A DNA stretch of 64,000 bases, taken from NCBI RefSeq assembly GCF_030384885.1, contig NZ_CP128613.1, one strand, 5' to 3'. The position numbers were made by a program, and so were the translations under genes. This document shows, one piece after another, positions 15,101 to 42,035 of this stretch; the first letter of the stretch is position 1; each line of letters opens with the position of its first letter. The notes under the pieces are model-generated. The model was not told the origin of the DNA. It did no database searches and was given only the letters and a program-made list of their open reading frames with translations. The DNA is from Escherichia coli (lineage in GTDB: Bacteria > Pseudomonadota > Gammaproteobacteria > Enterobacterales > Enterobacteriaceae).

Positions 15101-15391
15101 AAACCGGCTGAATGAAGGTGAGAATTTTAAAAGACCGGAGGAGTAAACGGGATTATTAATTGCTTATTTGCATATTACTATTGAGGTTTCATAATCTTAG
15201 GAAATAAATGATACATGCGCTTTTCGGACTAATGAAAACTGCCCTTGTGCTAAATTTGTAAACCCTGCGCCGACAGGCTTGCGTAAAACTCTTTTGGTGA
15301 TAATGTGAGCCTTCCAAATCCAGACTATTCCGATTTGGGATCCATTTTGCCGTCCTGGCGTGTGTAACCGTTTTATCAAGGAATAAGCAGT

Positions 15392-16132
15392 ATGCGTAAA
15401 ATCGCATTAATTCTTGCGATGTTGTTGATCCCGTGCGTTTCGTTTGCCGGTTTGCTGGGCAGCAGTAGCTCGACCACGCCAGTGAGCAAAGAGTATAAGC
15501 AGCAGTTGATGGGATCCCCTGTCTACATCCAGATCTTCAAGGAAGAACGTACGCTCGATCTCTACGTCAAAATGGGCGAGCAATATCAACTGCTCGACAG
15601 CTATAAAATCTGTAAATATTCCGGCGGCTTGGGGCCAAAACAGCGTCAGGGCGATTTCAAAAGCCCGGAAGGGTTTTATAGCGTCCAGCGTAATCAGTTA
15701 AAACCAGACAGCCGTTACTACAAGGCGATTAATATCGGTTTCCCCAATGCCTATGACCGTGCGCATGGTTATGAAGGGAAATACCTGATGATCCACGGCG
15801 ATTGTGTTTCCATCGGCTGCTACGCGATGACCAATCAGGGTATTGATGAGATCTTCCAGTTCGTTACTGGTGCGCTGGTGTTTGGTCAGCCGAGCGTGCA
15901 AGTGAGTATTTACCCGTTCCGCATGACCGACGCCAATATGAAGCGCCATAAATATTCCAACTTTAAGGACTTCTGGGAGCAACTGAAGCCGGGCTACGAC
16001 TACTTTGAGCAAACCCGTAAGCCACCGACCGTTTCTGTGGTCAATGGCCGTTACGTGGTCAGCAAGCCGTTAAGCCACGAAGTTGTGCAACCACAGCTGG
16101 CATCAAACTACACGCTCCCCGAGGCAAAATAA
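15392..16132 (+). CDS. yafK: L,D-transpeptidase-like periplasmic protein
   Basis: 246 aa with signal peptide and YkuD-like region ([12 protein letters not shown]). Confidence 0.85.
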
Positions 16133-17809: not shown

Positions 17810-20254
17810 ATGATGATTTTGAGTATTCTCGCTACGGTTGTCCTGCTCGGCGCGTTGTTCTATCACCGCGTGAGCTTATTTATCAGCAGTCTGATTTTGC
17901 TCGCCTGGACAGCCGCCCTCGGCGTCGCTGGTCTGTGGTCGGCGTGGGTACTGGTGCCTCTGGCCATTATCCTCGTGCCATTTAACTTTGCGCCTATGCG
18001 TAAGTCGATGATTTCCGCGCCGGTATTTCGTGGATTCCGTAAGGTGATGCCACCGATGTCACGCACTGAAAAAGAAGCGATTGATGCAGGCACTACCTGG
18101 TGGGAAGGCGACTTGTTCCAGGGTAAGCCGGACTGGAAAAAGCTGCATAACTATCCGCAGCCGCGCCTGACCGCAGAAGAGCAAGCGTTTCTCGACGGCC
18201 CGGTAGAAGAAGCCTGCCGGATGGCGAATGATTTCCAGATTACTCATGAGCTGGCTGATTTGCCGCCGGAGCTGTGGGCGTACCTTAAAGAGCATCGCTT
18301 CTTCGCGATGATCATCAAAAAAGAGTACGGCGGGCTGGAGTTCTCGGCTTATGCCCAATCTCGTGTGCTGCAAAAACTCTCCGGCGTGAGCGGGATCCTG
18401 GCGATTACCGTCGGCGTGCCGAACTCATTAGGCCCGGGCGAGCTGCTGCAACATTACGGCACTGACGAGCAGAAAAATCACTATCTGCCGCGTCTGGCGC
18501 GTGGTCAGGAGCTCCCTTGCTTTGCACTGACCAGCCCGGAAGCGGGTTCCGATGCGGGCGCGATTCCGGATACCGGGATTGTCTGCATGGGCGAGTGGCA
18601 GGGCCAGCAGGTGCTGGGGATGCGACTGACCTGGAACAAACGCTACATTACGCTCGCGCCAATTGCTACCGTGCTTGGGCTGGCGTTTAAACTCTCCGAC
18701 CCGGAAAAACTGCTGGGTGGTGCAGAAGATTTAGGCATTACTTGTGCGCTGATCCCGACCACCACGCCAGGCGTGGAAATTGGTCGTCGCCACTTTCCGC
18801 TGAACGTACCGTTCCAGAACGGACCGACGCGCGGCAAAGATGTCTTCGTACCGATCGACTACATTATCGGCGGACCAAAAATGGCCGGGCAAGGCTGGCG
18901 GATGCTGGTGGAGTGTCTCTCCGTGGGCCGCGGCATCACCCTACCTTCCAACTCAACCGGCGGCGTGAAATCGGTAGCGCTGGCAACGGGCGCGTATGCG
19001 CACATTCGCCGTCAGTTCAAAATCTCTATCGGTAAGATGGAAGGGATTGAAGAGCCGCTGGCGCGTATTGCCGGGAACGCTTATGTAATGGATGCTGCGG
19101 CATCGCTGATTACCTACGGCATTATGCTCGGTGAAAAACCTGCCGTGCTGTCGGCTATCGTTAAGTATCACTGTACCCACCGCGGGCAGCAGTCGATTAT
19201 TGATGCGATGGATATCACCGGGGGCAAAGGCATTATGCTCGGGCAAAGCAACTTCCTGGCCCGTGCTTACCAGGGCGCACCGATTGCCATCACCGTTGAA
19301 GGGGCCAACATTCTGACCCGCAGCATGATGATCTTCGGTCAGGGAGCGATTCGTTGCCATCCGTACGTGCTGGAAGAGATGGAAGCGGCGAAGAACAATG
19401 ACGTTAACGCGTTCGATAAACTGCTATTCAAACATATCGGCCACGTCGGCAGTAACAAAGTTCGCAGCTTCTGGCTGGGCCTGACGCGCGGTTTAACCAG
19501 CAGCACACCAACCGGCGATGCCACTAAACGTTATTATCAGCACCTGAACCGCCTGAGTGCCAACCTCGCCCTGCTTTCTGATGTTTCGATGGCGGTGCTG
19601 GGCGGCAGCCTGAAACGTCGCGAACGCATCTCGGCACGTCTGGGGGATATTTTAAGTCAGCTTTACCTCGCCTCTGCCGTTCTGAAGCGTTATGACGACG
19701 AAGGCCGTAATGAAGCCGACCTGCCGCTGGTGCATTGGGGCGTACAGGATGCGCTGTATCAGGCTGAACAGGCAATGGACGATTTACTGCAAAACTTCCC
19801 GAACCGCGTGGTTGCCGGGCTGCTGAATGTGGTGATCTTCCCGACCGGACGCCATTATCTGGCACCGTCTGACAAACTGGATCATAAAGTGGCGAAGATT
19901 TTACAAGTGCCTAACGCCACCCGTTCACGTATTGGTCGCGGTCAGTACCTGACGCCGAGCGAGCATAACCCGGTTGGTTTACTGGAAGAGGCGCTGGTGG
20001 ATGTGATTGCCGCCGATCCGATTCATCAGCGGATCTGTAAAGAGCTGGGTAAAAACCTGCCATTTACCCGTCTGGATGAACTGGCGCACAACGCGCTGGC
20101 AAAGGGGCTGATTGATAAAGATGAAGCCGCTATTCTGGTGAAAGCTGAAGAGAGTCGTCTGCGCAGTATTAACGTTGATGACTTTGAGCCGGAAGAGCTG
20201 GCGACGAAGCCGGTAAAGTTGCCGGAGAAAGTGCGGAAAGTTGAAGCCGCATAA
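17810..20254 (+). CDS. fadE: acyl-CoA dehydrogenase
   Basis: ORF 17732..20254 trimmed to [11 protein letters not shown] (814 aa); N-terminal TM segments plus acyl-CoA dehydrogenase domains. Confidence 0.9.
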
Positions 20255-20262
20255 TTGAATAA

Positions 20263-20286
20263 CGGAGCCGAAAGGCTCCGTTTCAT
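20263..20286 (+). terminator. intrinsic terminator after fadE
   Basis: CGGAGCC-GAAA-GGCTCCG followed by TTTC. Confidence 0.5.
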
Positions 20287-20296
20287 TATCCGCTAA

Positions 20297-20770
20297 TTAT
20301 TTAAAATTAAAGCCATCCGGATGATTTTCCAGGCTGCCGGTCAACGCCGCGAATAGCACCGTTTTACCATCAATCGAAAGCGCATCATTCACATTCAACC
20401 AGGTGAGTTTCTCTTGCGACGTTTTCTCATCAATGGTCGAGAACAGCCCCGTCATCTGATTAGATTTCTCGGACCACATCACAGCGATACGTTGCGAGCC
20501 ACAGTCATGCGGTTTGCACGCGCTCATCACCTGATACGTCTCATCTCCCAACGTTACGGTTTGTGCAGGGGTATAAGTCCCGCCTTTCATCACCCAGGCA
20601 GGCAGCTTATGCCCTTGCACCATCTGATTAAACGCAGCTTTGGTGGTTTCGCCCTTTGCAAGGCTGCTAATGGTTAAATCATCCTGCGCCATTGCACTGG
20701 TGGCGATGACCAGAGCGGCGACTGTTGTTATTGCCTTAAACATCATTCCTCCCGAGCTTATCCTGCCCAT
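20297..20770 (-). CDS. ivy: inhibitor of vertebrate (C-type) lysozyme, periplasmic
   Basis: 157 aa with signal peptide; contains the Ivy loop motif CKPHDC. Confidence 0.85.
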   Translation of the reverse strand: MGRISSGGMMFKAITTVAALVIATSAMAQDDLTISSLAKGETTKAAFNQMVQGHKLPAWVMKGGTYTPAQTVTLGDETYQVMSACKPHDCGSQRIAVMWSEKSNQMTGLFSTIDEKTSQEKLTWLNVNDALSIDGKTVLFAALTGSLENHPDGFNFK

Positions 20771-20923
20771 GTTATTAACCTCCTAAAGCCTGGCGATAAC
20801 ACGATAATTTGCAAATCAGATATTTCCAATATCAGCATTTGTTATCAATTTATTCTGCGCTAAGGCAACTGCCTGATAAGGTGTTAAAGTTATAAAACCC
20901 TTCACATAAAGGAGTTGTACACC

Positions 20924-21694
20924 GTGCCTGGCTTGAAGATTACGCTTTTGCAGCAACCACTGGTGTGGATGGATGGTCCTGCCAACCTGCGCCATTTTGA
21001 TCGTCAACTAGAAGGTATTACCGGGCGCGATGTGATCGTTCTACCGGAGATGTTTACCAGCGGCTTTGCCATGGAAGCGGCAGCTTCGTCGCTAGCACAA
21101 GATGACGTAGTGAACTGGATGACAGCTAAAGCGCAGCAGTGCAATGCGCTGATTGCAGGCAGTGTTGCATTACAAACGGAGTCTGGTTCGGTTAACCGCT
21201 TTTTGCTGGTTGAGCCGGGCGGCACGGTACATTTTTATGATAAGCGTCATCTGTTCCGAATGGCAGATGAGCATCTGCATTATAAAGCGGGCAATGCGCG
21301 AGTGATTGTGGAATGGCGCGGCTGGCGTATTTTGCCGCTGGTGTGCTACGACCTGCGTTTTCCGGTGTGGTCGCGCAATCTCAACGATTATGACCTCGCC
21401 ATCTACGTTGCCAACTGGCCTGCACCGCGCTCTCTGCACTGGCAGGCATTGCTGACGGCCCGCGCGATTGAGAATCAGGCGTATGTGGCGGGATGCAATC
21501 GCGTCGGCAGCGATGGCAACGGCTGCCATTATCGCGGTGACAGCCGGGTGATTAATCCACAGGGCGAGATTATTACTACTGCCGACGCGCATCAGGCAAC
21601 GCGCATTGATGCCGAGTTGTCGATGGCGGTGTTAAGGGAATATAGAGAAAAGTTTCCAGCATGGCGGGATGCGGATGAGTTTAGGTTGTGGTGA
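20924..21694 (+). CDS. yafV: nitrilase-family omega-amidase (2-oxoglutaramate amidase)
   Basis: ORF 20915..21694; GTG start at 20924 preceded by AAAGGAG gives 256 aa; CN-hydrolase fold motifs. Confidence 0.85.
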   Translation: MPGLKITLLQQPLVWMDGPANLRHFDRQLEGITGRDVIVLPEMFTSGFAMEAAASSLAQDDVVNWMTAKAQQCNALIAGSVALQTESGSVNRFLLVEPGGTVHFYDKRHLFRMADEHLHYKAGNARVIVEWRGWRILPLVCYDLRFPVWSRNLNDYDLAIYVANWPAPRSLHWQALLTARAIENQAYVAGCNRVGSDGNGCHYRGDSRVINPQGEIITTADAHQATRIDAELSMAVLREYREKFPAWRDADEFRLW

Positions 21695-21734
21695 GTGGGG
21701 GTTGTGTTTAGGGCCGGGGAGAGTCGGGGTAAGA

Positions 21735-22808
21735 CTACGAAAGCCCGCTCCCAGCAAGGACTGACGCCAGATAGTTTCTGTCCATGGCTGCTTTTCGCAT
21801 CTTACGTCTTAACCCTGCCTTGAATACCTTATCATTCGTTAAAATATTAATAGCGATGTGCCGTATCCCTGAAAATAATTCTGCGGCGTTTCCTCTTCGT
21901 ATTTTGCAGTCGTCTTCATTCATTACCACGTCCAGACGCCAGTGCAGCTTATTCTCCACGTGCCAGTGATTTCGGATCGCTGTGGCGAACTTTTCTGCGG
22001 TTAAATCAGCAGAACTGATATAATATCTGACCGTCATTTCTGGCTCTTTCTTTTGTTCTGCTATTATTGACCGAAAGGAGAATGCCACGCATAATTTCTT
22101 CAGTCCTTTCCATTCAAACGTGAAATCAATAAGTTCATCACGGACATCGCAAACAATATGAAGACGGATTTCTTCTCTGCCGTGACTCTTTTCACTCATT
22201 GCGTAACTGTCATGCTCTGGATTATTTAATTCTTTCAGCGGAAATTTTTCCTCGAAGGCTTTATTTAGCCGCCCCTGGTTTCCTTTTACAGCGAATAAAT
22301 AATCACCTCCCTGTTTTTGTATCTTCTCTGCAATATCTTTCTGGCAACCCATCGCATCAGTTGTGATGATTTTTCCTTTAATATCCAGAATGTTAAGAAG
22401 TTCTGGGATAGCTGTAATCTCATTGGATTTCTCATCCGTCCTGATCTGTCCGATGACCAGACTGTGCATTGTTGAGAATGCACTAATGACATGAATCGCT
22501 CCCCTGCGGCGACTCTTGTCATAAGAATGCCGGAGTGTTTTTCCATCAATTGCGATGACGTCTTTATCATCTGAAGTATGGCAATCTCGCATCCAGTTAA
22601 TAAAGCACTCGTGAAATTTTGAAGGACTGATACAGGATACAACTCTGGCGATGGTATCGTGAACAGGAATACCATTTTCAAAATCACCATATTGTTTTAA
22701 AAAATCGCGATGTGCTTCCCCAAACTCCTCTATATGTTCCCAGCCTTCTGCACCAGAAATAACGGCACAAATAGTCAACAGTAGAATATCCGACAATTTA
22801 TGTTTCAC
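21735..22808 (-). CDS. H-repeat-associated protein (ISAs1-family transposase-like); N-terminus apparently frameshifted
   Basis: 357 aa ORF starting at GTG; an ATG with strong SD (AAGGAG) at 22872 opens a 24-codon ORF ([24 protein letters not shown]) in another frame that stops at the start of the long ORF. Confidence 0.8.
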
Positions 22809-22999
22809 TTTTGCAGGATTGTCTGTAATCGGGAATAACAGAAATATGTTCCATCAATTTTTTAAGTTCCATTCTTTTCTCCTTAATTATGTAAGGAGTA
22901 TTTGATCATGTATAAGCAATAAAAAAACAGCTTCAGGCAATGAGGAATATCTCAATTTTTAAACATAAAATGCGAATTGTTTAGTACAAAAAAGCAGCG

Positions 23000-24889
23000 T
23001 TAAGTGAGTAGGCCACCGGAACCTCCCCGACAGCCTCTCGCAGAACCGTACGTGAAACTCTCGCTTCATACGGCTCCCGTCAGGCAAACGCGCTTCCTGG
23101 TCCTGCTTTCCAGTGGGCAAACAACTCCGGCTTCTCTTTTGACAGCCTTTCCATTAGCTGACACGCCTTCGTCTTTCTATACCGCAGGGTTTTATATTTC
23201 TTTCTCGCCCACGCAATCAGCGTCAGATTAATATATCTGCATACTTTCTTCATCGCTGATTTGTGGTATCTCGCGTAATAATTCAGCCACCCCGATATTA
23301 TCGGATTCAGCCACTTCGCAATATCTTCGAGACTCATCTCCACCCTGCGTCTGATCCACAGTTTCCTGAGTTTTCCAATCATGCCTTTCTGCGCACGGTT
23401 ACTCGCCGCCGGGCTGAAACTCGTAAAGAGGTTTCCCCGCCGGTGGTTACGTGCTCTTCGCGCTCTGAACGTATACCCCAGAAAATCAAACTGCACTGTT
23501 TCATGGTTCGCCTGTCGTTCGCTGTCTTTGCAGTAAACTATTTTCGTTTTCTCCGGATGTAATTCCAGTCCACATTCCTGAAAACGTTTTGCCAGCTTAT
23601 TCAGTAATTCCTCTGCCTGTTGTTTACTGCCACAATGAATTAATCCATCATCTGCATAACGGCACCAGGGAATTTCCGGATAATGTAACGTCAGCCATTT
23701 ATCAAACACATAGTGCAGAAATAAATTCGCCAGTACCGGGCTGATGACTCCACCCTGTGGCGTACCTTTATTTCTTTCCTTCAGTGTTCCATCCGGCATC
23801 TGCACCGGCGCTGTCAGCCACCGGCGAATAGACAGTCTTACCCATTTATCCGCACAATGTTTATCCACTGCCCTGAGTAATAAATCGTGGGGGATATTAT
23901 CGAATAACCCTTTAATATCAAACTCAAGACACCAGTCGTATTGCCAGCAACGTTTTCTGGTGACTGCTATTGCATCCAGCGCTGATTTTCCATGCCGGTA
24001 TCCGTATGAATCATTCAGGAAATAACGCTCCACTAATGGTTCAAACGTTACCAGCACCGTCATCTGCGCTATTCGATCGCTTACTGTCGGTATTCCTAAA
24101 AGTCTTTTGCTGCCATCCTTCTTCGGAATTTCCACCGCACGCACTGGCGGCGGCATCCAGCTTCCCGACGATAACCTGTTCCAGATTTTGTACAGATTTC
24201 CTTTCAGATCCCGCTCAAAATCTTTCAGCGTCTGGTTATCCACTCCGGCAGCTCCGGCATTCGCCTTTATCCGCCGGTACGCTTCCACCACATGCAATTT
24301 ACTGACCTGAAACGGTTTTGTCTGTTCACACACAGCCTCCTCCTGCCTACAGTTGGGCTGTGATGCAGACTGCCCGACGCTGTCCCTTCGCTCCACGTTC
24401 ATTACAAACGCTTCCTCACTACTACGAACAGCTCTGCCCCGGTTTCGCACATCGATACTCTCATACTCATAATTTCGGTTATTTGTATTTCTCTCTTGAC
24501 ATTGCGACGACCGGTTCCCGTAGTTCCTGCAAAGAGCCCGATACAGCGTCATGCCTGCTATACACCGGACATCATTCACGCAGCATTCGGAATTCACCCG
24601 TAAATTAATCCCGGCGGTATCACGAAACCTCCGGTTTTGATGTCACTTAGGACTAACGACGTTTCAACACAGGTTCGGGTTTACTCATCTCACTGTATCT
24701 CACATAGGATCAGATCTCGTCTGATCGTTCCCCCTGCGCTCACTACCATGGCTCTTTACCACAGCAGCCGGGGTTGTTTGGGACCGACTTCCGACAGCAG
24801 ATCCCGGTGGGCCTGCCACCATCTCTTCACAAGCTTATGCTTATTACATGCAAAACGTCCCGTTTTGCATCTTTGTGCCTACGGCACAC
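23000..24889 (-). mobile_element. group II intron (approximate boundaries), carrying an intron-encoded protein
   Basis: Minus strand: candidate 5' end GUGUG at 24889; domain V GAGCCGTATGAAGCGAGAGTTTCACGTACGGTTC at 23078..23041 immediately after the IEP stop; 3' end not precisely mapped. Confidence 0.6.
23080..24402 (-). CDS. group II intron reverse transcriptase/maturase, no endonuclease domain
   Basis: ORF 23080..24597 trimmed to MNVERRD; RT motifs including YADD (CRYADDGLIHC) and a maturase (X) domain; ends without an HNH region. Confidence 0.85.
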   Translation of the reverse strand: MNVERRDSVGQSASQPNCRQEEAVCEQTKPFQVSKLHVVEAYRRIKANAGAAGVDNQTLKDFERDLKGNLYKIWNRLSSGSWMPPPVRAVEIPKKDGSKRLLGIPTVSDRIAQMTVLVTFEPLVERYFLNDSYGYRHGKSALDAIAVTRKRCWQYDWCLEFDIKGLFDNIPHDLLLRAVDKHCADKWVRLSIRRWLTAPVQMPDGTLKERNKGTPQGGVISPVLANLFLHYVFDKWLTLHYPEIPWCRYADDGLIHCGSKQQAEELLNKLAKRFQECGLELHPEKTKIVYCKDSERQANHETVQFDFLGYTFRARRARNHRRGNLFTSFSPAASNRAQKGMIGKLRKLWIRRRVEMSLEDIAKWLNPIISGWLNYYARYHKSAMKKVCRYINLTLIAWARKKYKTLRYRKTKACQLMERLSKEKPELFAHWKAGPGSAFA

Positions 24890-25138
24890 CGTGATCTTTC
24901 CCTAGCATATCGCCCTGACGCGCCGCTGGTTTTACGCTCATGGTATCTCCTTAAATTATTTTGGGCTGTATTCTGGCACCATAGACTCTGATTTATCACC
25001 AATACTCAAAACACCATTAATCAGAAAAATCAGCATCTACATATAATTAATTAGAATAATTCAATAAATTATTTTTCTGCCATTATTGACTTGGCTTTTT
25101 ATTGAATGAAATAAAAGAAAAAATCATCACCTAAAAAT

Positions 25139-25756
25139 TTAGTAGACGTTTCTTGTTACTATATGCGCATCATCAACCAAACGCCCGGAACTATCTGTTT
25201 CCTCATGATCAGATACACACATTTCTGGTGCATATCCTGAAAAATCAGAAGTCGCATTCGGATAATTTGTGACATCTAATCTTAATTTAAAACTATATAT
25301 CTCCCAAAATAATTCAGGAGATCTTTCAGGCAAAAAATCATAAATATCAATAAGTATCTTCATCCCCCTTACACGGAACTCCCTCCTGTGTCCATATAAC
25401 GGATGATCTTTACATCCACCAATGATTTGGGACAGAAAAAATCTTGCTCGTGTTTCTGTTACTCCCCAATTAGCAACAGGTTGAAAAATTTCAGAACCAT
25501 CTTTCACACTAAAAAATTTACATTGGTAAAAGCCTGAAAACGTACCATATTCTCCAATATATTTTTCTGATTCATTATAATCCATGCAAACAAAAACATA
25601 TTCAATATCTCCATTTTTTGCCATAACATCATGGATAATAAATGGATTGTTTTGTGATACAGAGAAAATACTATGTACGTTCTGCACTTCAACATTTAAA
25701 GCCCATATATCACTGGGAAAGAAAATCAAACATATCAAATACAACCAAAATTTCAT
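25139..25756 (-). CDS. putative immunity protein for the upstream Rhs C-terminal toxin
   Basis: 205 aa, low GC, hydrophobic N-terminus; start overlaps the Rhs stop (TAATG); the usual position of rhsI genes. Confidence 0.45.
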   Translation of the reverse strand: MKFWLYLICLIFFPSDIWALNVEVQNVHSIFSVSQNNPFIIHDVMAKNGDIEYVFVCMDYNESEKYIGEYGTFSGFYQCKFFSVKDGSEIFQPVANWGVTETRARFFLSQIIGGCKDHPLYGHRREFRVRGMKILIDIYDFLPERSPELFWEIYSFKLRLDVTNYPNATSDFSGYAPEMCVSDHEETDSSGRLVDDAHIVTRNVY

Positions 25757-26748
25757 TATTGCGTACCACTCGGACAACTCATATCATCAGGTATAGTAAT
25801 TATTACATCTTGAATGCCCATATCCTTCTCTAGCCCTGGTATTTCAAGAATCAACTTTCCGGGATTTTTATCCATTAACTTTTGCTGAGGGTTTATATTA
25901 TTTCTACGCAAAGCCGAATCATCAACGATGTCCCTGACACAACTAAACAGCTGAGTACCATCAGCTTTTAATTTTCCGCTAATAGAATTTATTTTATTTC
26001 TGGCAGATGGTTTATCCCTAAATCCCCATTGAGAAGGGATAATTGCTGTCGAGTCAGTTGTTACTCCGTATTTATCCAAATTTGAAGGACTAGTGTTATA
26101 TCCACCACCTTTCCCAACTAGTCTCGAATTTCCTTGTAATACTCGTGCGCTGCCTATACATTCTTTTAACCCCAAAGGATCTATATACCCCACAGGATCC
26201 AGCGGATACGCATACAGGTTCCAGCCCCCCTTCAGCCCTATCGGATCCTGGGTAATATACCTCCCCTGCAACGGGTCATAGTACCGGTGATGGTTGTAAT
26301 ACAGTCCCGACTCCTCATCATACTGCTGCCCCGGCAGACGGAGTGACTGTTGCAGGTGCAGCGTGCTTTCCTCTCCCAGCAGGTTTCCCCACTCGTCATA
26401 CTCCCCCTGCCACGCCGTTTCCCCTTCCGGGCTGATGAGCGCCTGCGGCAGCCCACGGTGGTCACAGTGGTAAAGATGAAGTTTCCTCTCCGGGATGTAT
26501 TCCGCCTCCATCTGCGCCGCCATCTGTTCCGCCGTCAGCCCGCACTGCGCAAGCCACTGCTGGCTTTCCTCACTCACCGCGCCCGTGCGCAGCTCCCGCT
26601 CCAGCCTTCCCAGCATCACCGCCAGCTCCGCCGGTAGCGTCACCCCCGTGTCCTCCTGCAACATCTCCGCCAGGCTATCCTGCATCGCCGTCTGGCCGGA
26701 AAGCCTGCAACAGCAGCAGGCTACGACACAATGGAATGAAGCACTCAA
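25756..26748 (-). CDS. orphan Rhs fragment: C-terminal part of Rhs core plus variable toxin tip
   Basis: Contains the Rhs core end [52 protein letters not shown] followed by ~139 aa of low-GC unrelated sequence; the large N-terminal Rhs body is absent. Confidence 0.8.
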
Positions 26749-27079
26749 AACCCGCGCACAGAGTAGCCCACAGTTGCGTGGCTGGTTGCAGACCCGCCAG
26801 GACTTACATGCTTTTGCAGATCTCGTGATGCAGCGCGAGAAAGAGGGATTAACCCTTTCCTATATCAAAAATGTCATCTGGCAGGCGGAGCGGGGGCTGG
26901 GGCAGGAAACGCCTGTGGAATCTCTGCTGACGCAGTACCAGGATGCCCGTGCGCAGAAGCAGAATACAGATGCGCTGGAAAAACAGATTAACGAGCGGAT
27001 GGACGGCGTGTTAAGTCGCTGGCTGCTGCTGAAGAATAATACGATACCGACGATAAAAAAAGACATTGAATTTCAATAA
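26705..27079 (+). pseudogene. 3' remnant of an unidentified gene, abutting the truncated Rhs fragment head-to-head
   Basis: ORF 26495..27079; only the part beyond ~26705 has plausible coding character, the upstream part is antisense to the Rhs core. Confidence 0.3.
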
Positions 27080-27105
27080 CATTCATGAATACAAAGGAGC
27101 TTTAA

Positions 27106-27585
27106 ATGGCGAATTTAATTTATTTAACACTAAATGGTGATAATCAAGGGCTCATTTCAAGTGGTTGTTCATCACAACCATCCATTGGAAATAAAGCTCA
27201 AACAGCACACATTGATCAAATTATGATTTATGAATTCATGCATGGATTAAATCGAGATCAAAACGTCAACCATCATCATTTGACAATAAAAAAACCTATA
27301 GATAAAGCATCACCCTTATTAGGCAAAGCAATTTGCGACAATGAATTATTGACATGTGATTTTTCCTTTTATCGTACAAATAAATTTGGAATTAATGAAC
27401 TGTACTATAAAATCAAATTAACTGGAGCAAAGATAAGCGACATTCATGTCTCTATATCACATATTGTTGTTGATAACAGCGTTCAACCCGAAGAGTCAGT
27501 TTCTTTCAGTTATGAGTCAATTATATGGGAGCATTGTTCCGCTGGCACTAGTGCATACAGTTTATGGGAAGATCGTCTTTTTTAA
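27106..27585 (+). CDS. hcp: Hcp-family protein (type VI secretion tube/effector-carrier)
   Basis: 159 aa; Hcp-like pattern LIYLTLNGD..HHHLTIKKPIDKASPLLGKAI..SVSFSYESIIWEH; SD AAAGGAG upstream. Confidence 0.8.
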   Translation: MANLIYLTLNGDNQGLISSGCSSQPSIGNKAQTAHIDQIMIYEFMHGLNRDQNVNHHHLTIKKPIDKASPLLGKAICDNELLTCDFSFYRTNKFGINELYYKIKLTGAKISDIHVSISHIVVDNSVQPEESVSFSYESIIWEHCSAGTSAYSLWEDRLF

Positions 27586-27605
27586 AAATATCTGGGATTA
27601 TTATA

Positions 27606-28502
27606 ATGGCTAACAATATTTTACACTCTTCAACATCAGACAGTGAAAACAAAAATACAAGCACTGACAGTACGTTATTTAATGAAAAATTCCCATTTCA
27701 ACTAAGGCAAGATTTCGCATCAAGAATAACAGAAGATGAAAGTGATTTTTTTAAATGGAAAAAAATAAGAGAGTTGGCATTTGTGAGCAATCATAAAGAA
27801 TGGAATAAATATGACTTATTAATTTTAAAATCTGTTAATGAAATCAACATTCATTTGTCCAGCACTCCATACTTTCAGCCGTTGGATTGGTATATAATAA
27901 AAGCCATGCTCTGGACTGAAAACGATGCGGCAAATACTTCTCAGTGGAATGGTTATCCATTACAAATTGGTCGTTTTCGGAAAGATAAAGCGATGCCTGC
28001 TTTAATTTCTGGAGAAAAATCCACAGCCCTTGTTACCCCCCCACAATGGAGAAACAAAGCATTCAATGGGTTAAAAGATCCAGAAAGAAATTACTGGGCA
28101 AAAGAACAAATAACTGGCTCTCCAGAAGAGAATATCAAAGCAGCAATTACTTACTTAATGATGAAACTTTCTAATACAAAGGAAGAGTCAACTATCGTTC
28201 AATATGACTCAACTCTATATAGCACCATTGTCCAAAAAGGCGATTTGGCTGACAACATCAGAAAAGAGAGAAAAACGACCATACCTAACTTAACGAAAAA
28301 CAACCCTGGAAAAAATCTCGATAAAATACACCCGGGAGATATTTTATATTATCAAAAAGCATCCATGAAAGTAATAATTACTGGATGGAAACCTATCACA
28401 ATAAAAAATGTAGCGATGAATTATAATGGTGGTGGAGATCCCAAGTATGCAATAAAACTTCAGTTCGTTTATACATTGCTCACAAAAAACAGAGTGTTAT
28501 AA
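27606..28502 (+). CDS. candidate Hcp-linked effector: cysteine-free protein with putative lysozyme-like region and C-terminal LysM-like segment
   Basis: ORF 27564..28502 trimmed to MANNILHSS (298 aa); no signal peptide, no Cys; segment WTENDAANTSQWNGYPLQIGRF and TIVQKGDLADNI..IHPGDILYY; family assignment tentative. Confidence 0.4.
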   Translation: MANNILHSSTSDSENKNTSTDSTLFNEKFPFQLRQDFASRITEDESDFFKWKKIRELAFVSNHKEWNKYDLLILKSVNEINIHLSSTPYFQPLDWYIIKAMLWTENDAANTSQWNGYPLQIGRFRKDKAMPALISGEKSTALVTPPQWRNKAFNGLKDPERNYWAKEQITGSPEENIKAAITYLMMKLSNTKEESTIVQYDSTLYSTIVQKGDLADNIRKERKTTIPNLTKNNPGKNLDKIHPGDILYYQKASMKVIITGWKPITIKNVAMNYNGGGDPKYAIKLQFVYTLLTKNRVL

Positions 28503-28504
28503 GA

Positions 28505-28954
28505 ATGGGAAAAATAACAATTATTCTACTGCTTACATTCTCATGTACAAAAGGTCTGGCATTTGACATTTCCATGTCTAAAGAATGTAGTGGCGTTGAT
28601 GAACTTGAATTTGTTGATTGTGTTAAAAACTCATTTATTATGAGCACTATTACACTTAAAAAAGCAGAAGTAAATATAAAAGAGAAAATTAAAAAATGGA
28701 ATAACGATGAGGACGAAGCAATAAGAAAAGAAGCAGTTATTTCTTTAAAAAGACTAGAATCTTCTAATCGGGAATTTATACGTTACAGATTTGCTCAATG
28801 CTCTTTTGCTCTAACCTGGGGGGCCAGAGTAGGACGTCTGGCATTCTCTCGACTATATCCATGCTATACTGAGTTAAACAAAATTAGAGCCATGCAACTA
28901 AACAATGCTTTCATTTCAGATTTTCAAAACCCAGATGAGATATCCAGCAAATGA
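28505..28954 (+). CDS. secreted small protein, candidate immunity protein (DUF1311/LprI lysozyme-inhibitor-like pattern)
   Basis: 149 aa; Sec-type signal peptide MGKITIILLLTFSCTKGLA; conserved-Cys pattern with REFIRYRFAQC. Confidence 0.4.
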   Translation: MGKITIILLLTFSCTKGLAFDISMSKECSGVDELEFVDCVKNSFIMSTITLKKAEVNIKEKIKKWNNDEDEAIRKEAVISLKRLESSNREFIRYRFAQCSFALTWGARVGRLAFSRLYPCYTELNKIRAMQLNNAFISDFQNPDEISSK

Positions 28955-29307
28955 TTATTATAAAATTAAGATTAACATTACTATTTATACTGGCCACAAT
29001 TACATATTCAGTACAATCAGACGAATTCGATGATCAAACCACTTACACGAAATACCGTTATTTTTCCACAGCCATACCAGAAGATATACGTAGATTTATG
29101 TTCTACGTAGATTATTGCTTTGTAGATTTAGCATTCGATATCGAAACTGACTCAATGACAGCTAAAAATGATATTATTAATGAATGTACTCCATTAAAAG
29201 AAAGAAACAAAACATTAAAAGAAAAATATAAAAAAGATGAAGAGATAATAGCAATTCTTTCCATTGCAGATGATACCATTTTAATTTATGAAGAATTAAA
29301 AAAATAA
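28951..29307 (+). CDS. secreted small protein, second candidate immunity protein
   Basis: 118 aa; signal peptide MIIIKLRLTLLFILATITYSVQS; 4-nt overlap with the upstream gene; very AT-rich. Confidence 0.35.
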   Translation: MIIIKLRLTLLFILATITYSVQSDEFDDQTTYTKYRYFSTAIPEDIRRFMFYVDYCFVDLAFDIETDSMTAKNDIINECTPLKERNKTLKEKYKKDEEIIAILSIADDTILIYEELKK

Positions 29308-29433
29308 CTCACATGCAATTCACTGGCAATATATATTATAATTTTATAAAAAAAATAATATTTACATTATAGAAATACTCAGCTCCTGTTTGCTGCCCGC
29401 CCTAAACTACAGGCGGCAGCATAACAATAACGA

Positions 29434-30234
29434 TTACTGGAATCGACTCACCAAGTCTTTCACCATCGATACATATGTTTTTTGTTTCAAATTAAACAGT
29501 TGCACTTCCGTAACATGGTCCTTTGATAGTTCTTTATTGCTCGTTTTTGTTATTCCAGCCGGCGGAAAAATTACTCTCGATTCATAATTCACCGGCGACC
29601 AGGTAGCCCACTCACCTGTTGCCACATCCACCAGCGTGAAACGTACCAGGTAGCGCAGGGAGATAGTGTCAGTGAGTTTTTCATTTTTATAGTCGGACCA
29701 TACTGTTGATTTCAGCGCAGAGTCATATTTTCCTGTCTGCAACGTATCATGGTAAACAATAATCGCTTTCTGATGCCCTTTCGCAGCCACAAAACGCAAT
29801 GCCTGCATCCAGTTCATATTTTCAGCACTGGCAACATCCTCGTTCTCATTTTTATCTTTATTTTTGTTACAAGTCAGAGGCTTTTGCCTGTCCGGGATAC
29901 CAGAGAATGTGGAAACAGTATAATATTTTCTCATCTCCTCCTGCATAATGGTTTCCGGTGCGCGACTGCCAGACTGGACAAGTATTACGGGAGAATTGAG
30001 AGGCACACGAAACTCATCTCCTTCAAGCGCAGCCTGAATATCCTCCTCGGATACAGCCAGAGTGGTTTCATTACCGAATAAATCTTTGTCTGTCAGTTGC
30101 GGGGGAATGTTTTTATTAATATTACTTTGTGTAACTTGAGCTTTTTTCTTTTTTTCATCAATAGAAGATTGAGAGGCACATCCTGCAAGCAGCGAGAATA
30201 ATACACATATGCAACAAACTTTTTTTGAATTCAT
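29434..30234 (-). CDS. yafT: lipoprotein of unknown function
   Basis: 266 aa with lipobox LLAGC; position adjacent to the tRNA-Asp gene. Confidence 0.7.
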
Positions 30235-30500
30235 AATCGGACACTCCCTCGCCTGTCATAATGATTAGAATATTTAGCACTGATAACGGACTCTAATTAT
30301 ATACCCCACTTAAATAATAACAAACAAAATCAACATGAAATATACATTCATTTAGTCAATATAAAATTATTCTCTAAAAATATATTTAAGTTGAATGGTT
30401 CGATATCATTATTGAATTTTAATAAATGAGACAACAAGCGAGAGTTACGCACTTACGCCAGAGTAAAATCATTGAACAGAGAAATAGCGGGATTTAAATG

Positions 30501-30532
30501 CAAAAAACCGCAAAATTAAAAATCTTGCGGTT
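30501..30532 (-). terminator. intrinsic terminator downstream of tRNA-Asp (aspV)
   Basis: On the minus strand AACCGCAA-loop-TTGCGGTT followed by TTTTTG. Confidence 0.5.
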
Positions 30533-30559
30533 CTCTGAACTCATTTTCATGAGTAAATT

Positions 30560-30636
30560 TGGCGGAACGGACGGGACTCGAACCCGCGACCCCCTGCGTG
30601 ACAGGCAGGTATTCTAACCGACTGAACTACCGCTCC
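30560..30636 (-). tRNA. aspV: tRNA-Asp (GUC)
   Basis: Exact 77-nt match to the remembered E. coli tRNA-Asp sequence, CCA-encoded. Confidence 0.95.
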
Positions 30637-30768
30637 GCGTTGTGTTCCGTTGGGAACGAGGCGAATATTACGGATTGCCTCACCCTTCGTCAACGGTTTT
30701 TCTCATCTTTTGAATCGTTTGCTGCAAAAATCGCCCAAGTCGCTATTTTTAGCGCCTTTTACAGGTAT

Positions 30769-31500
30769 TTATGCCCGCCAGAGGCAGCTTCCGCCCTTTT
30801 TCTGCACCAGATCGAGACGGGCTTCATGTGCCGCAAGCTCTTCATCTGTCGCAAAAACAACGCGTAACTTACTTGCCTGACGCACAATGCGCTGAATTGT
30901 TGTTTCACCTTGTTGCTGTTGTGTCTCTCCTTCCATCGCAAAAGCCATCGACGTTTGACCACCAGTCATCGCCAGATAAACTTCCGCAAGGATCTGGGCA
31001 TCGAGTAATGCCCCGTGCAGCGTTCGTTTACTGTTATCTATTTCATAACGAGCACATAACGCATCAAGGCTGTTGCGCTTGCCAGGAAACATTTTCCTCG
31101 CCACCGCAAGGCTATCTGTGACCTTACAGAAGGTATTGGTCTTCGGAATATCGCGCTTGAGCAACGAAAACTCATAGTCCATAAAGCCGATATCGAACGC
31201 TGCGTTATGGATCACGAGCTCCGCGCCGCGAATATAGTTCATGAACTCATCGGCTACTTCGGCAAATGTGGGCTTATCGAGCAAAAACTCATCGGCAATA
31301 CCATGTACGCCAAAGGCTTCTGGATCCACCAGCCGATCGGGTTTGAGATAAACGTGAAAGTTATTGCCCGTCAGGCGACGGTTCACCACTTCAACGGCAC
31401 CAATCTCAATGATCTTGTGGCCTTCATAGTGCGCACCAATCTGGTTCATACCGGTGGTTTCGGTATCGAGAACGATCTGGCGTGTAATTGCAGTGCTCAT
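30769..31500 (-). CDS. dnaQ: DNA polymerase III epsilon subunit (3'-5' proofreading exonuclease)
   Basis: ORF 30769..31509 trimmed to [17 protein letters not shown] (243 aa). Confidence 0.95.
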
Positions 31501-31564
31501 AGCGGTCATTTATGTCAGACTTGTCATTTTACAGTTCGATTCAATTACAGGAAGTCTACCAGAG

Positions 31565-32032
31565 ATGCTTAAACAGGTAGAAATTTTCACCGATGGTTCG
31601 TGTCTGGGTAATCCTGGACCCGGGGGTTACGGCGCTATTTTACGCTATCGCGGACGCGAGAAAACCTTTAGCGCTGGCTACACCCGCACCACCAACAACC
31701 GTATGGAGTTGATGGCCGCTATTGTCGCGCTGGAGGCGTTAAAAGAACATTGCGAAGTCATTTTGAGTACCGACAGCCAGTATGTCCGCCAGGGGATCAC
31801 CCAGTGGATCCATAACTGGAAAAAACGTGGCTGGAAAACAGCAGACAAAAAACCAGTAAAAAATGTCGATCTCTGGCAACGTCTTGATGCTGCATTGGGG
31901 CAGCATCAAATCAAATGGGAATGGGTTAAAGGCCATGCCGGACACCCGGAAAACGAACGCTGTGATGAACTGGCTCGTGCTGCGGCGATGAATCCCACAC
32001 TGGAAGATACAGGCTATCAAGTCGAAGTTTAA
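31565..32032 (+). CDS. rnhA: ribonuclease HI
   Basis: ORF 31454..32032 trimmed to [23 protein letters not shown] (155 aa); divergent from dnaQ. Confidence 0.95.
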
Positions 32033-32751
32033 GCCTGTGGTTTACGACATTGCCGGGTGGCACCAACCGCCTGGCGAATTCGTGGCTTGTTTTTACTCTG
32101 TTTCATCGGATTTAGCGTTAAAGGAATAGTCCGTTTCCGGGCAACGATAAGTTGTAAGCAACCAAGCGCAGGAATATGCGCATTCAATAGTTTTCCACCG
32201 TGTTTGTTCCACGGGAGAACGTGGAAACGGCTGGCGTGCAGCACTTCAAAATTCAACAAAGAGAGCCAGTCCAGTTGCCGCATCAGAGTAAACATCCGGC
32301 TGTTATAGGGCGAGTTTTTTCGCAATACCGGCACAAGTTTGCGCAATCCCATTAAACTGATGGGATTAAAGCCACTAATGACCAGCCAGCCATCATCAAT
32401 CAATACCCGATCGGTTTCACGCAATAAACGATGCGGATCGGTGCACCACGGCAATGTATGTGCCAGTAGACAAACATCAACGGATTTATCGGCAAAAGGA
32501 AGATGAAGTGGGTCCGCCTGCACCTGGACGGGCATTCCTTGCGCAGAAACATTCACTTGATGAGAAACCGCGCACGCTTCGCAATTGATTTCTGCGCTTA
32601 AATTGCCAATCTTAAGCAGATGAAAACCATACATTTTAGTGAACCACGGGTTGAGCTGGCGCTCCAGCGCCTTGCGATAAAGCTCTCCCCAGGGCAAATC
32701 GCCCCAGCAATCAGGAGCCACGACAGTTTGAGGGACTCTTGCTGGTTTCAT
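32029..32751 (-). CDS. yafS: SAM-dependent methyltransferase-like protein
   Basis: ORF 32029..32769; start possibly the internal Met; synteny between rnhA and gloB. Confidence 0.8.
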
Positions 32752-32781
32752 CACAACCTTCCGTTTCACACTGAGAGGTAA

Positions 32782-33540
<759 letters not shown>

Positions 33541-33611
33541 TAAAACTTTCTTGTCATCGGCTCCGTTCGCCGTTATGATCGGTCGTCTTTTAAGCAACTA
33601 TTGACACACAC

Positions 33612-34970
33612 ATGAAGGCAAAAGCGATATTACTCGCCTCTGTCCTGCTCGTGGGTTGCCAGAGTACCGGCAACGTTCAACAGCACGCACAGAGCCTTTC
33701 TGCAGCTGGTCAAGGGGAAGCAGCAAAGTTTACAAGTCAGGCACGATGGATGGACGATGGGACGTCTATCGCGCCAGATGGTGACTTGTGGGCTTTCATT
33801 GGCGACGAGCTAAAGATGGGAATTCCGGAAAATGACCGGATTCGCGAACAGAAACAGAAATATTTACGCAATAAGAGCTATCTCCACGATGTAACTTTAC
33901 GGGCAGAGCCGTATATGTACTGGATAGCTGGGCAAGTTAAAAAACGTAACATGCCTATGGAACTGGTACTACTACCCATAGTGGAGAGCGCTTTTGATCC
34001 TCACGCGACGTCTGGCGCCAATGCCGCAGGCATCTGGCAGATCATTCCGAGCACGGGGCGCAATTATGGTTTGAAACAGACCCGCAATTATGACGCGCGT
34101 CGCGATGTTGTTGCTTCAACGACTGCCGCGCTGAACATGATGCAGCGTCTGAACAAGATGTTTGACGGCGACTGGCTTCTGACCGTAGCGGCTTATAACA
34201 GCGGCGAAGGTCGGGTCATGAAGGCAATTAAAACGAACAAAGCGCGTGGGAAATCCACGGACTTCTGGTCGTTACCGTTGCCGCAGGAAACGAAACAGTA
34301 CGTGCCTAAAATGCTGGCATTGAGTGATATTCTCAAAAACAGCAAGCGTTATGGTGTACGTCTGCCAACGACTGATGAAAGCCGTGCTCTGGCGCGTGTG
34401 CACCTGAGCAGCCCGGTTGAAATGGCGAAGGTTGCAGATATGGCGGGAATTTCCGTCAGCAAGCTGAAGACATTCAACGCTGGCGTGAAAGGCTCCACGC
34501 TGGGCGCAAGTGGCCCGCAGTACGTGATGGTGCCAAAGAAGCATGCAGATCAACTGCGTGAATCTCTGGCTTCAGGCGAAATTGCTGCTGTACAGTCGAC
34601 GCTGGTTGCCGACAATACGCCGCTTAACAGCCGTGTTTACACCGTACGCTCTGGCGACACGCTTTCAAGTATCGCTTCACGTCTCGGCGTAAGCACCAAA
34701 GATTTGCAGCAGTGGAACAAACTGCGCGGATCTAAGCTGAAGCCAGGCCAAAGTTTGACGATTGGTGCAGGCAGTAGCGCACAGCGGTTGGCAAACAACA
34801 GCGATAGCATTACGTATCGTGTGCGCAAAGGCGATTCGCTTTCAAGCATTGCTAAACGCCACGGCGTGAACATCAAAGATGTGATGCGCTGGAACAGCGA
34901 CACTGCGAATCTGCAACCAGGCGATAAGCTGACGTTGTTTGTGAAAAACAACAACATGCCAGATTCCTGA
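33612..34970 (+). CDS. mltD: membrane-bound lytic murein transglycosylase D
   Basis: 452 aa; lipoprotein signal (LLVGC), SLT domain and two C-terminal LysM repeats. Confidence 0.9.
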   Translation: MKAKAILLASVLLVGCQSTGNVQQHAQSLSAAGQGEAAKFTSQARWMDDGTSIAPDGDLWAFIGDELKMGIPENDRIREQKQKYLRNKSYLHDVTLRAEPYMYWIAGQVKKRNMPMELVLLPIVESAFDPHATSGANAAGIWQIIPSTGRNYGLKQTRNYDARRDVVASTTAALNMMQRLNKMFDGDWLLTVAAYNSGEGRVMKAIKTNKARGKSTDFWSLPLPQETKQYVPKMLALSDILKNSKRYGVRLPTTDESRALARVHLSSPVEMAKVADMAGISVSKLKTFNAGVKGSTLGASGPQYVMVPKKHADQLRESLASGEIAAVQSTLVADNTPLNSRVYTVRSGDTLSSIASRLGVSTKDLQQWNKLRGSKLKPGQSLTIGAGSSAQRLANNSDSITYRVRKGDSLSSIAKRHGVNIKDVMRWNSDTANLQPGDKLTLFVKNNNMPDS

Positions 34971-34985
34971 CAAACCAGATAATAA

Positions 34986-35016
34986 AAAGGCACCGATTCC
35001 CCCGGTGCCTTTTTTA
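34986..35016 (+). terminator. intrinsic terminator after mltD (bidirectional with yafE)
   Basis: GGCACCG-ATTCCCC-CGGTGCC followed by TTTTTTATTT. Confidence 0.6.
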
Positions 35017-35017
35017 T

Positions 35018-35788
35018 TTATGCCGCTTTATGTGCTTCTACCATGATGATATCACTGGTGAAAGAGCCATCATTCTGCAAGGCAAAATACGTTTTCACCT
35101 CTGTCGATGCGCTCTGTTGGTAAATGCGAATAGCGTCTACTAACGCTTCTGGCGTACGCATTCTCACGACCCATGAAGAAAATTCCAGCGGTAACTTATC
35201 TGTAATTAAATTATCAACTATCAGATTGGCTTCATTGATTAACGTCAACCACTCACCGCTGGCGTAGTTTCGTACGTGTGAGGTATCGCGTAATGCTTCT
35301 GCCGTCTGTAACCAGATGTCGCGCACTGGGTGACCCGGAGACATTACGTCCATCACAATCAGCTTACCGCCAGGTTTCAATATCCGATTCACTTCACGCA
35401 GTGCTGCACCAACATCATGCCAGTGATGGGCAGAATAACGGCTGATAACAATATCAAATGCGTTATCGGCAAATGGCAGACTTTCGGCATAACCCTGGCG
35501 GGTGGTGATATTTTTCAGTTGCCGGGCTTCCGCAGCTTGTGCCACGACATCCAGCATTTGGGCAGATAAGTCATACGCCACCACCGCGCTAACGTTCTGC
35601 GCAGCGACAAAGCTGGCATGCCCTGCTCCGCAGCCCATATCAAGTACACTTGCATCAGGATAATCAGCCAGACGCACCGCCAGGCGCTGTAAATCTCGCC
35701 CGGATGCATGTACGGTACTGGTTAAATACTCACTGGCCTGCGAGCTAAACTGCTTTTCTACGTGGTCATGGTGGGATTGTGTTGTCAT
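35018..35788 (-). CDS. yafE: SAM-dependent methyltransferase
   Basis: 256 aa; methyltransferase motif I VLDMGCGAGH. Confidence 0.8.
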   Translation of the reverse strand: MTTQSHHDHVEKQFSSQASEYLTSTVHASGRDLQRLAVRLADYPDASVLDMGCGAGHASFVAAQNVSAVVAYDLSAQMLDVVAQAAEARQLKNITTRQGYAESLPFADNAFDIVISRYSAHHWHDVGAALREVNRILKPGGKLIVMDVMSPGHPVRDIWLQTAEALRDTSHVRNYASGEWLTLINEANLIVDNLITDKLPLEFSSWVVRMRTPEALVDAIRIYQQSASTEVKTYFALQNDGSFTSDIIMVEAHKAA

Positions 35789-35864
35789 TGCGCTGTCCTT
35801 TTATTGTTTGATTAAAAAGGGCAGCGCCAAACGTTGGTCTGCCCTGTGGCAGACCTGACATACC

Positions 35865-36716
<852 letters not shown>

Positions 36717-36905
36717 CTACTGTTATAGGGATTTTAGCTCACTCTTTCAACGAGCAATTGTATATTGTTATGTAAGCAAGTGCTTACACCGGTCAGAAAT
36801 TTGCTCATTATTGAGAACATTAAATCGGATGACATATCACGCATCCTGATGGTTTAATGACAAATAAATTCAAAATATCTCATCTATTTTGCAACAGGAG
36901 CAAAA

Positions 36906-38620: not shown

Positions 38621-38742
38621 AATATGCCTCTTTTGATGCTATGTTCGTTAACTGAGATGATTATGGACTTTAGACTGTTGCGGGAAAAGGGCGTAAAACG
38701 CAGAGGATTTTTGCGATTTTGGCAATAATAGAAATACAGACG

Positions 38743-38771
38743 AAAAAAAAACCTCGAGCGTTAACTCGAGG
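38743..38771 (-). terminator. rRNA operon terminator
   Basis: Minus strand CCTCGAG-TTAACG-CTCGAGG followed by a T9 run. Confidence 0.55.
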
Positions 38772-38783
38772 CTTCTTAATAAG

Positions 38784-38860: not shown

Positions 38861-38912
38861 ACCGAATTCTTTTACAACCACCGGTTTTATGACCGGCTTA
38901 CTGCTTAATTTG

Positions 38913-39130: not shown

Positions 39131-42035
<2,905 letters not shown>

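Follow-up and report, generated by a model that had tools for sequence, protein, structure and literature searches.

What occupies the interval between yafV and the tRNA-Asp gene aspV in one Escherichia coli genome (assembly GCF_030384885.1, contig NZ_CP128613.1): several modules acquired side by side, or the remains of a single locus? The window that we analysed is a stretch of 64,000 nt of this contig, and all positions given below refer to it. Its aberrant interval of ~8.9 kb between yafV and aspV carries, on the minus strand, the end of an Rhs toxin gene with a putative immunity gene, an insertion sequence (IS) and a group II intron, and, on the plus strand, hcp followed by an effector gene and two genes for signal-peptide proteins. 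A preliminary description of this DNA had listed these genes, every one of which we find to be present based on open reading frames (ORFs), NCBIfam and Rfam, and had read them as three juxtaposed mobile or toxin modules. We give a probability of roughly 0.9 to another reading: that the interval is a decayed copy of the aspV-linked type VI secretion system (T6SS) island of E. coli, of the type found in enterohemorrhagic E. coli (EHEC) and O55:H7 and classed as T6SS-2 / subtype i1.

The key comparison strain is E. coli 2013C-4282 (locus L004), which is 99.94% identical to the window over positions 20000–26677 and 99.8% identical over 26692–40000, both flanks being collinear with a complete aspV-linked cluster. 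Between the equivalents of positions 26677 and 26692 this strain has 25,878 bp that are absent from the window. They comprise the remainder of the PAAR-Rhs gene (4,185 nt in all), vgrG, hcp, tssB, tssC, tssE, tssF, tssG, tagH, tssJ, tssK, dotU, tssH/clpV, vasI, tssA, tssM, and the greater part of a VasL-domain gene. Because 2013C-4282 has the complete cluster between them, the Rhs arm on the minus strand and the hcp arm on the plus strand represent opposite ends of a single T6SS cluster. Of the three modules first proposed, two are therefore parts of the same locus, and only the ISAs1 element and its intron stand as separate mobile elements.

The join between the two arms holds a piece of a gene that lies within the missing segment: 19 nt (26676–26694, plus strand) are identical to an internal piece of tssM (L004 22219–22237). 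Fourteen of these nucleotides (26678–26691) match neither breakpoint, and together with the flanking TA and CTG microhomologies they constitute the exact 19-nt tssM piece. Such a relic is the mark of either two successive deletions or one complex (templated) deletion at microhomologies of 2–3 nt; it proves descent from the full cluster, with the deletion reckoned from an ancestor shared with 2013C-4282, and dates the decay precisely. We propose an ancestral locus of ~35 kb with the order yafV, ISAs1::intron, rhsI, rhs, vgrG, hcp2, tssB...tssM, vasL, hcp1, etse4, etsi4, orf118, yafT, aspV. The arms would have been joined by illegitimate deletion, as one complex event or in two successive steps, which used the 2–3-nt microhomologies and brought the 3′ end of vasL against the middle of rhs; every structural gene but hcp1 would have been removed, and 14–19 nt of tssM would have stayed behind at the join.

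The locus is incapable of building a T6SS. A functional system is recognized by some 13 core genes (tssA–M) found together, of which only hcp (tssD) is intact here; the vasL fragment and the 19 nt of tssM are the only other core traces, and the remaining core genes of 2013C-4282 are absent. The deletion has left the two remnants head to head, both truncated at their 5′ ends.

To what extent the junction itself can be trusted was considered together with its distribution. A megablast search of 5,426 complete E. coli genomes, with window positions 20500–32000 as the query, recovered the yafV and aspV flanks in all genomes and the whole arrangement of the window in none of them (0/5,426). The same junction thus occurs in no other complete genome, and as it is known from a single sequence and Rhs regions are repetitive and prone to misassembly, it might be taken for an artefact of a collapsed or chimeric contig. 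We consider this extremely improbable: the join lacks the long repeat expected of a collapse and bears the marks of illegitimate recombination described above, the templated tssM relic and the microhomologies, and comparable natural deletions are found in several finished genomes. The enterotoxigenic E. coli (ETEC) strain L7_E1373 has an rhs fragment joined to the C-terminal part of icmF/tssM, E. coli C has three rhs fragments and an rhs joined to vasL at a different point, and in AR_0085 a truncated vgrG is joined to vasL. These deletions have different end points and are independent.

Composition and boundaries of the interval

That AT-rich mosaic DNA adjoins aspV, as the preliminary description had it, is borne out by base composition at three levels. 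In windows of 500 nt, the mean GC content is 0.409 (range 0.298–0.614) for the 34 windows inside 21695–30559 and 0.525 ± 0.045 for the 221 outside; windows below 40% GC number 16 of 34 inside and 3 of 221 outside, one of these three spanning the boundary. By tetranucleotide distance, the segment 27001–30000 departs most from the remainder of the window. The individual features differ in GC content as well, both on the Rhs side (ISAs1 0.40, intron 0.49, rhsI 0.33, Rhs C-terminal domain 0.38, Rhs core remnant 0.61) and on the hcp side (hcp 0.33, etse4 0.34, etsi4 0.34, orf118 0.27, yafT 0.42).

The interval begins after yafV, which encodes a 2-oxoglutaramate amidase (NF007757) and ends at position 21694, and its right-hand boundary is aspV (tRNA-Asp with anticodon GUC, 30560–30636, minus strand; predicted by ARAGORN and with 67.7 bits in Rfam), so positioned that the island sits 3′ of the tRNA gene. 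Next to aspV lies a gene for a YafT-like lipoprotein (29434–30234, minus strand) with 86.5% amino-acid identity to YafT of K-12. The 3′ end of this gene, its last ~45 codons (29434–29580), is unlike that of yafT in K-12; the DNA resembles that of K-12 again only from 29580, which puts the start of the variable segment inside yafT.

The position beside a tRNA gene raises the alternative of a classical, integrase-mediated island or islands, inserted site-specifically at the 3′ end of tRNA-Asp and composed of three independent modules (Rhs toxin, hcp–effector cassette, and IS with intron). The AT-rich DNA does abut the 3′ end of aspV, and aspV has been described as an insertion hot-spot where the T6SS islands SPI-6 and SPI-20 (Salmonella pathogenicity islands) are also found (PMC2907695). 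The locus itself lends no support to the classic integration site that the preliminary description had invoked. No integrase is found among the ORFs of the window, nor does the annotation of the complete island in 2013C-4282 include one; the 3′ terminal 21-mer of tRNA-Asp, allowing up to three mismatches, is found in the window only in aspV and in the second tRNA-Asp gene, aspU (38784–38860), at the end of the rrnH operon; and a search for boundary repeats over 21000–31000 returned only short pairs at chance level. Both hallmarks of a tRNA-integrated island, an integrase and tRNA-derived direct repeats at the far boundary, are thus missing (SPI-20 is likewise without obvious direct repeats; PMC2907695), and the two toxin arms correspond collinearly to the two ends of a single cluster. 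Site-specific integration of separate modules is in our view very improbable, and largely refuted. We also considered the island as a carrier of anti-phage defence genes and rejected this, a PADLOC scan of the island for such genes giving no match.

The DNA to the left of the interval differs between the two strains compared. Window positions 1–13553 hold intact lateral-flagella (Flag-2) genes: fliI (912–2249, minus strand), fliH, fliG, fliF (3944–5590, minus strand), the gene for a sigma-54 activator (5951–6937, minus strand), fliP, fliR, flhB, and flhA (11460–13553, plus strand). In strain 2013C-4282, which carries the common lafU/flhA′ deletion of Flag-2, the match to the window starts only at 11841. 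As Flag-2 is intact only in the strain of the window, the two strains show reciprocal losses, of the T6SS core in the one and of Flag-2 in the other. Going by coordinates transferred from the annotation of 2013C-4282, a hicA-hicB toxin–antitoxin pair would lie next to the Flag-2 end. The pair dinJ-yafQ, which in K-12 lies between dpaA and yafL, is absent from the annotation of 2013C-4282. These two observations concern ~13658–14285 and ~15091–15392 of the window.

The Rhs arm, its ISAs1 element and the group II intron

The Rhs arm is the 3′ remnant of a T6SS-linked PAAR-Rhs toxin gene (25756–26677, minus strand; NF041261, TIGR03696 with 88 bits, and Pfam RHS), amounting to ~307 of 1,394 codons. 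It covers only positions 1082–1261 of the 1261 of the NF041261 model, and shares 99.9% identity with the corresponding 3′ part of rhs in 2013C-4282, a gene of 4,185 nt encoding 1,394 aa. The elements that characterize a polymorphic Rhs toxin are all recognizable: the end of the Rhs core (26167–26677, minus strand) with the motif DPLGL, corresponding to the pattern PxxxxDPxGL, a variable C-terminal domain of 137 aa (Rhs-CT; 25759–26166, minus strand), and an adjacent putative immunity gene, rhsI (25139–25756, minus strand), its start sharing 1 nt with the stop codon of rhs. Those of a complete Rhs protein, an N-terminal PAAR or delivery domain and a full YD-repeat shell, are missing, as are a start codon and a promoter; the Rhs toxin gene is dead.

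The Rhs-CT has no match in Pfam, NCBIfam, PADLOC, PHROG or the PDB. A word-indexed search of 5.8 billion proteins returned only an Rhs fragment of Citrobacter amalonaticus (85% identity) and a fragment of E. fergusonii, and an AlphaFold2 (AF2) model from the three sequences was unusable (predicted local distance difference test, pLDDT, 42). A phmmer match to hen egg-white lysozyme (E = 0.14) had some appeal because the immunity protein is periplasmic; it was gone in a profile search and the catalytic Glu is absent, and we attribute it to chance. The 205-aa product of rhsI has an N-terminal signal peptide, no match in Pfam, NCBIfam, PADLOC or PHROG, and few homologues, which are from Citrobacter and Lelliottia. 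This signal peptide suggests that the toxin would act in the periplasm. It is conceivable, if doubtful, that the Rhs-CT and its partner represent an undescribed family of periplasm-acting toxins and immunity proteins, a pair perhaps retained after the loss of the machinery, with the immunity gene still protecting against armed relatives. Downstream of rhsI lies a stub of 13 codons, MSVKPAARQGDML (24903–24941, minus strand), which is cut by the end of the ISAs1 element. It has a good Shine-Dalgarno sequence of its own, and its translation mirrors the PAAR N-terminus MGGKPAARQGDM of the full Rhs protein in 2013C-4282; we take it to be the start of another PAAR-type gene.

The mobile element between this stub and yafV is a defective ISAs1-family (H-repeat) IS, which extends over 21727–24903 (minus strand) including the intron; similarity to other ISAs1 copies begins at 21727. 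Both the transposase and the terminal repeats of the family are recognizable. The transposase (NF033564, 414 bits; minus strand) is represented by an ORF at 21735–22808 within a pseudogene at 21735–22872, with an N-terminal frameshift after ~22 codons that is visible in the translation and is also annotated as "frameshifted" in the 99.9% identical copy of 2013C-4282. With a frameshift in its transposase gene and the intron splitting its terminal repeat, this ISAs1 copy is defective.

The intron, which the preliminary description had placed beside the H-repeat gene, lies inside the IS instead: an alignment with the intron-less ISAs1 ends of ETEC L7_E1373 and O157:H7 places it within the terminal repeat ("AGGGAAAGATCA..."). 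It is a full-length group II intron of 1,887 nt (23003–24889, minus strand), with the 5′ sequence GUGUG at 24889, in agreement with the GUGYG consensus, an ORF for a reverse transcriptase (RT)/maturase (23080–24402, or to 24597, minus strand; TIGR04416 427 bits, cutoff 300), domains V and VI with a bulged A in domain VI (23003–23078, minus strand; Rfam RF00029 62.8 bits, gathering score 40), and domains D1–D4 (24703–24820, minus strand; Rfam RF01999 93.1 bits, gathering score 36). Its 3′ boundary at 23003 is a placement derived from the end of the Rfam model and an equal-length reconstruction of the IS end.

Full-length copies of this intron occur in 83 of the 5,426 genomes and any match in 2,565, mostly 5′ fragments and including BL21 and O157:H7. 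These fragments consist of the first 150–207 nt and adjoin ISAs1 copies, in BL21 and others at the same locus as in the window; in O157:H7 SS TX 754-1 (L005 1943–2175) duplicated parts of the terminal repeat of the IS adjoin the fragment on both sides. The introns E.c.I2 and E.c.I9 are known to target Rhs-associated IS (ISEc1–5), and fragments of E.c.I9 have been listed for BL21, REL606, EDL933 and Sakai (PMC3522654). Because fragments of the window intron occur in genomes for which E.c.I9 fragments are listed, it is probably E.c.I9. It would be a passenger retroelement homing into the ends of ISAs1 elements.

The hcp arm, Etse4 and the present status of the locus

Having lost the long operon upstream of it, the hcp arm begins with the 3′ fragment of a VasL-domain gene (26692–27140, plus strand), the structural gene with which the T6SS operon ends; this fragment is 100% identical to the sequence annotated as VasL in 2013C-4282. 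It is followed on the same strand by an intact hcp gene (27106–27585; TIGR03344 197.9 bits; an identical block in 2013C-4282), which encodes the TssD tube protein and corresponds to Hcp1 of the EHEC cluster, by an intact gene for an Etse4-type effector of 298 aa (27606–28502; 312 aa if read from an upstream ATG at 27564, which overlaps hcp), by a gene for an Etsi4-type immunity protein of 149 aa with a signal peptide (28505–28954), and by orf118 (28951–29307), an ORF of the same cassette encoding a 118-aa signal-peptide protein. The Etsi4-type protein is named DUF1311 / LprI family in RefSeq and has a weak match to LprI in Pfam (E = 0.007). The orf118 gene accompanies the cassette in 363 genomes, and its product has no match in Pfam, NCBIfam, PADLOC or PHROG.

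Both the sequence and the order hcp1–etse4–etsi4 identify the pair as Etse4 and Etsi4: the cassette is 97.6% identical to that of O157:H7 genomes, and the 298-aa protein is 98% identical to cluster P0001. In EHEC, Etse4 is toxic in the periplasm and is neutralized by Etsi4 (PMC12981562, published in 2026). The etse4 gene of EDL933 is split by a TTA-to-TAA change (PMC12981562); codon 74 in the window is TTA, encoding Leu74, the ancestral intact allele. RefSeq splits the corresponding region of 2013C-4282 (L004 27028–27924) into a truncated pseudogene of 73 codons and a protein of 198 aa. This region is 100% identical to window positions 27606–28502, one open frame of 298 codons, and the split is probably an annotation carried over from the nonsense allele of O157:H7.

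What kind of effector is Etse4? On its own it has no match in Pfam or NCBIfam, and we analysed its family of 360 representative homologues. An alignment of 60 sequences has an invariant Glu105 in the motif MLW-x-E-S/N, followed by MQIG and YNGGGD, which we take to resemble the ES, GLMQ and AYNAG motifs of SLT lytic transglycosylases. Among these 60 homologues, Pfam recognizes LysM in 47 and a sub-threshold SLT domain in 9 (best E 0.0026); in a profile search of the PDB, LysM is strong and EmtA appears at E = 0.5 only. The AF2 model of Etse4 has a pLDDT of 87, and its best structural matches are the housekeeping lytic transglycosylases MltF, Slt70 and MltE. The two marks of the lysozyme/SLT superfamily, a lysozyme-like alpha-helical fold and a catalytic Glu in an ES-type motif, are thus predicted to be present, and we predict that Etse4 is a peptidoglycan glycosidase with a lysozyme/SLT fold and an inserted LysM domain, and that a DUF1311/LprI-type inhibitor blocks it. 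DUF1311 proteins have a precedent as immunity proteins against lysozyme-like T6SS effectors (PMC12135965). The predicted fold with its Glu105 goes modestly past the 2026 description of Etse4 as LysM-like (PMC12981562).

With the machinery gone, hcp1 and the intact etse4 would be stranded. In view of the lost operon promoter, the AT-rich DNA and the reported H-NS silencing of the cluster in EHEC, they would either be silent or need a further T6SS, encoded elsewhere in the genome, to be of use. The genes rhsI and etsi4 may still matter, by protecting the periplasm against kin that fire a matching Rhs-CT and Etse4. An alternative is that hcp–etse4–etsi4 forms a functional "orphan hcp" module with its own promoter, loaded on a different T6SS elsewhere, the locus still being a weapon. 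All three genes are intact ORFs and the codon for Leu74 is kept where O157:H7 has a stop (PMC12981562), and many E. coli have multiple T6SS (PMC5363993). The module nevertheless opens with a gene fragment, its upstream operon lost; secretion of Hcp1 in EHEC was not detected even with the cognate machinery, and delivery of Etse4 by the T6SS was not shown there (PMC12981562); and there are no other T6SS genes in the 64-kb window. We therefore consider a functional orphan module unlikely and prefer the decayed cluster.

Several points weigh against this preference or limit it. Strain 2013C-4282 is not the literal ancestor, and as it is without the Flag-2 genes of the window, the deletion can be stated only relative to a shared ancestor. 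The analysis covers the 64-kb window, and another T6SS elsewhere in the genome could use hcp1 and etse4. A scan of 24800–30700 found 22 promoter-like sites where 20.2 were expected and 5 terminator-like sites where 4.4 were expected, and since these counts are no better than chance, the scan is silent on internal promoters. The protective role of the immunity genes is one that we infer, and the catalytic role of Glu105 in Etse4 is one suggested by similarity of motifs and fold.

The locus in other E. coli and its relation to known systems

Occupancy of the locus is highly uneven among the 5,426 genomes. The tssB–tssC core is found in 2,280 of them, the hcp–effector–immunity cassette of the window in 364, O157:H7 included, and the Rhs-CT/immunity pair in a single one, which is 2013C-4282. 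Together with the absence of the whole arrangement from all genomes searched, this bears out the hypervariable locus that the preliminary description had suggested from a short remnant in K-12, and that remnant is indeed there: 2.4 kb with the order yafT-ykfM-yafU′-yafF′. The aspV-linked T6SS of EHEC EDL933 is a 37-kb cluster repressed by H-NS (PMC5363993), classed as E. coli T6SS-2 or subtype i1 (PMC12981562; PMC5422975). This yafT-impA cluster was the most variable of the regions examined in one study, with small, probably non-functional versions in several strains (PMC5422975), and degeneration of the EHEC cluster is on record (PMC12981562, PMC5422975).

All components of the interval thus belong to described families, and the decay of the cluster is in the literature. 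Specific to the window are an unrecorded deletion allele with its tssM relic, the retention of an intact etse4, and a very rare Rhs-CT/immunity pair. The finding opens no new question and is mainly an aid to annotation, in that the "island" is one decayed weapon locus and not three acquisitions; it adds a case to the recorded pattern of E. coli lineages that repeatedly lose the core of the aspV T6SS and keep its effector and immunity ends.

In comparison with E.c.I9, the intron of the window is likewise situated in an ISAs1 element of an Rhs locus and has fragments in BL21 and O157:H7; the copy described here differs in being full-length with an intact RT. Etse4 can be compared with the T6SS effectors of the Tge family (Tse3/Tge1, Tge2), which are peptidoglycan glycoside hydrolases, and with lysozyme-like effectors that have DUF1311/LprI immunity proteins. 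It has no significant sequence similarity to these, has a LysM domain inserted in its catalytic domain, and has its closest structures among housekeeping lytic transglycosylases.

The remnant of K-12 (L003) reflects the same process at the same locus, a T6SS island cut down to a few genes, with a fragment of ISAs1 (the pseudogene yafF, shared with window positions 21695–22015) by yafV, and yafT by aspV. It differs in that K-12 has no hcp, Rhs piece or intron, and in that its 2.4 kb derive from a different hcp-linked cassette. The pseudogene yafU of K-12 is 100% identical to the last 112 aa of a 304-aa protein encoded directly after hcp in E. coli C, and ykfM comes next; the regions compared are L003 4258–5085 in K-12 and L006 8463–10392 in E. 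coli C. Since yafU corresponds to the C-terminal 112 aa of this post-hcp protein and is followed by ykfM, the two look like what is left of another hcp-linked cassette at this site, a truncated effector and a membrane immunity protein, and yafU/ykfM of K-12 would be explained as the stub of this alternative cassette. YkfM (159 aa) was also considered as a homologue of Hcp (likewise 159 aa), and this was rejected, as the two sequences are dissimilar and YkfM is predicted to be a membrane protein.

The closest relative of the locus is the aspV-linked T6SS of EHEC. The two have the same site, from yafV to aspV, with an rhs-linked other end and an H-repeat IS adjoining yafV, and they have in common the end hcp1-etse4-etsi4-orf118-yafT, at 97.6% nucleotide identity. 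The window is without the whole 25.9-kb core, whereas the damage to the EHEC cluster consists of point mutations and small indels; the window has an intact etse4, which a stop codon splits in EDL933; and the Rhs-CT of the window, with its immunity gene, is a rare allele.

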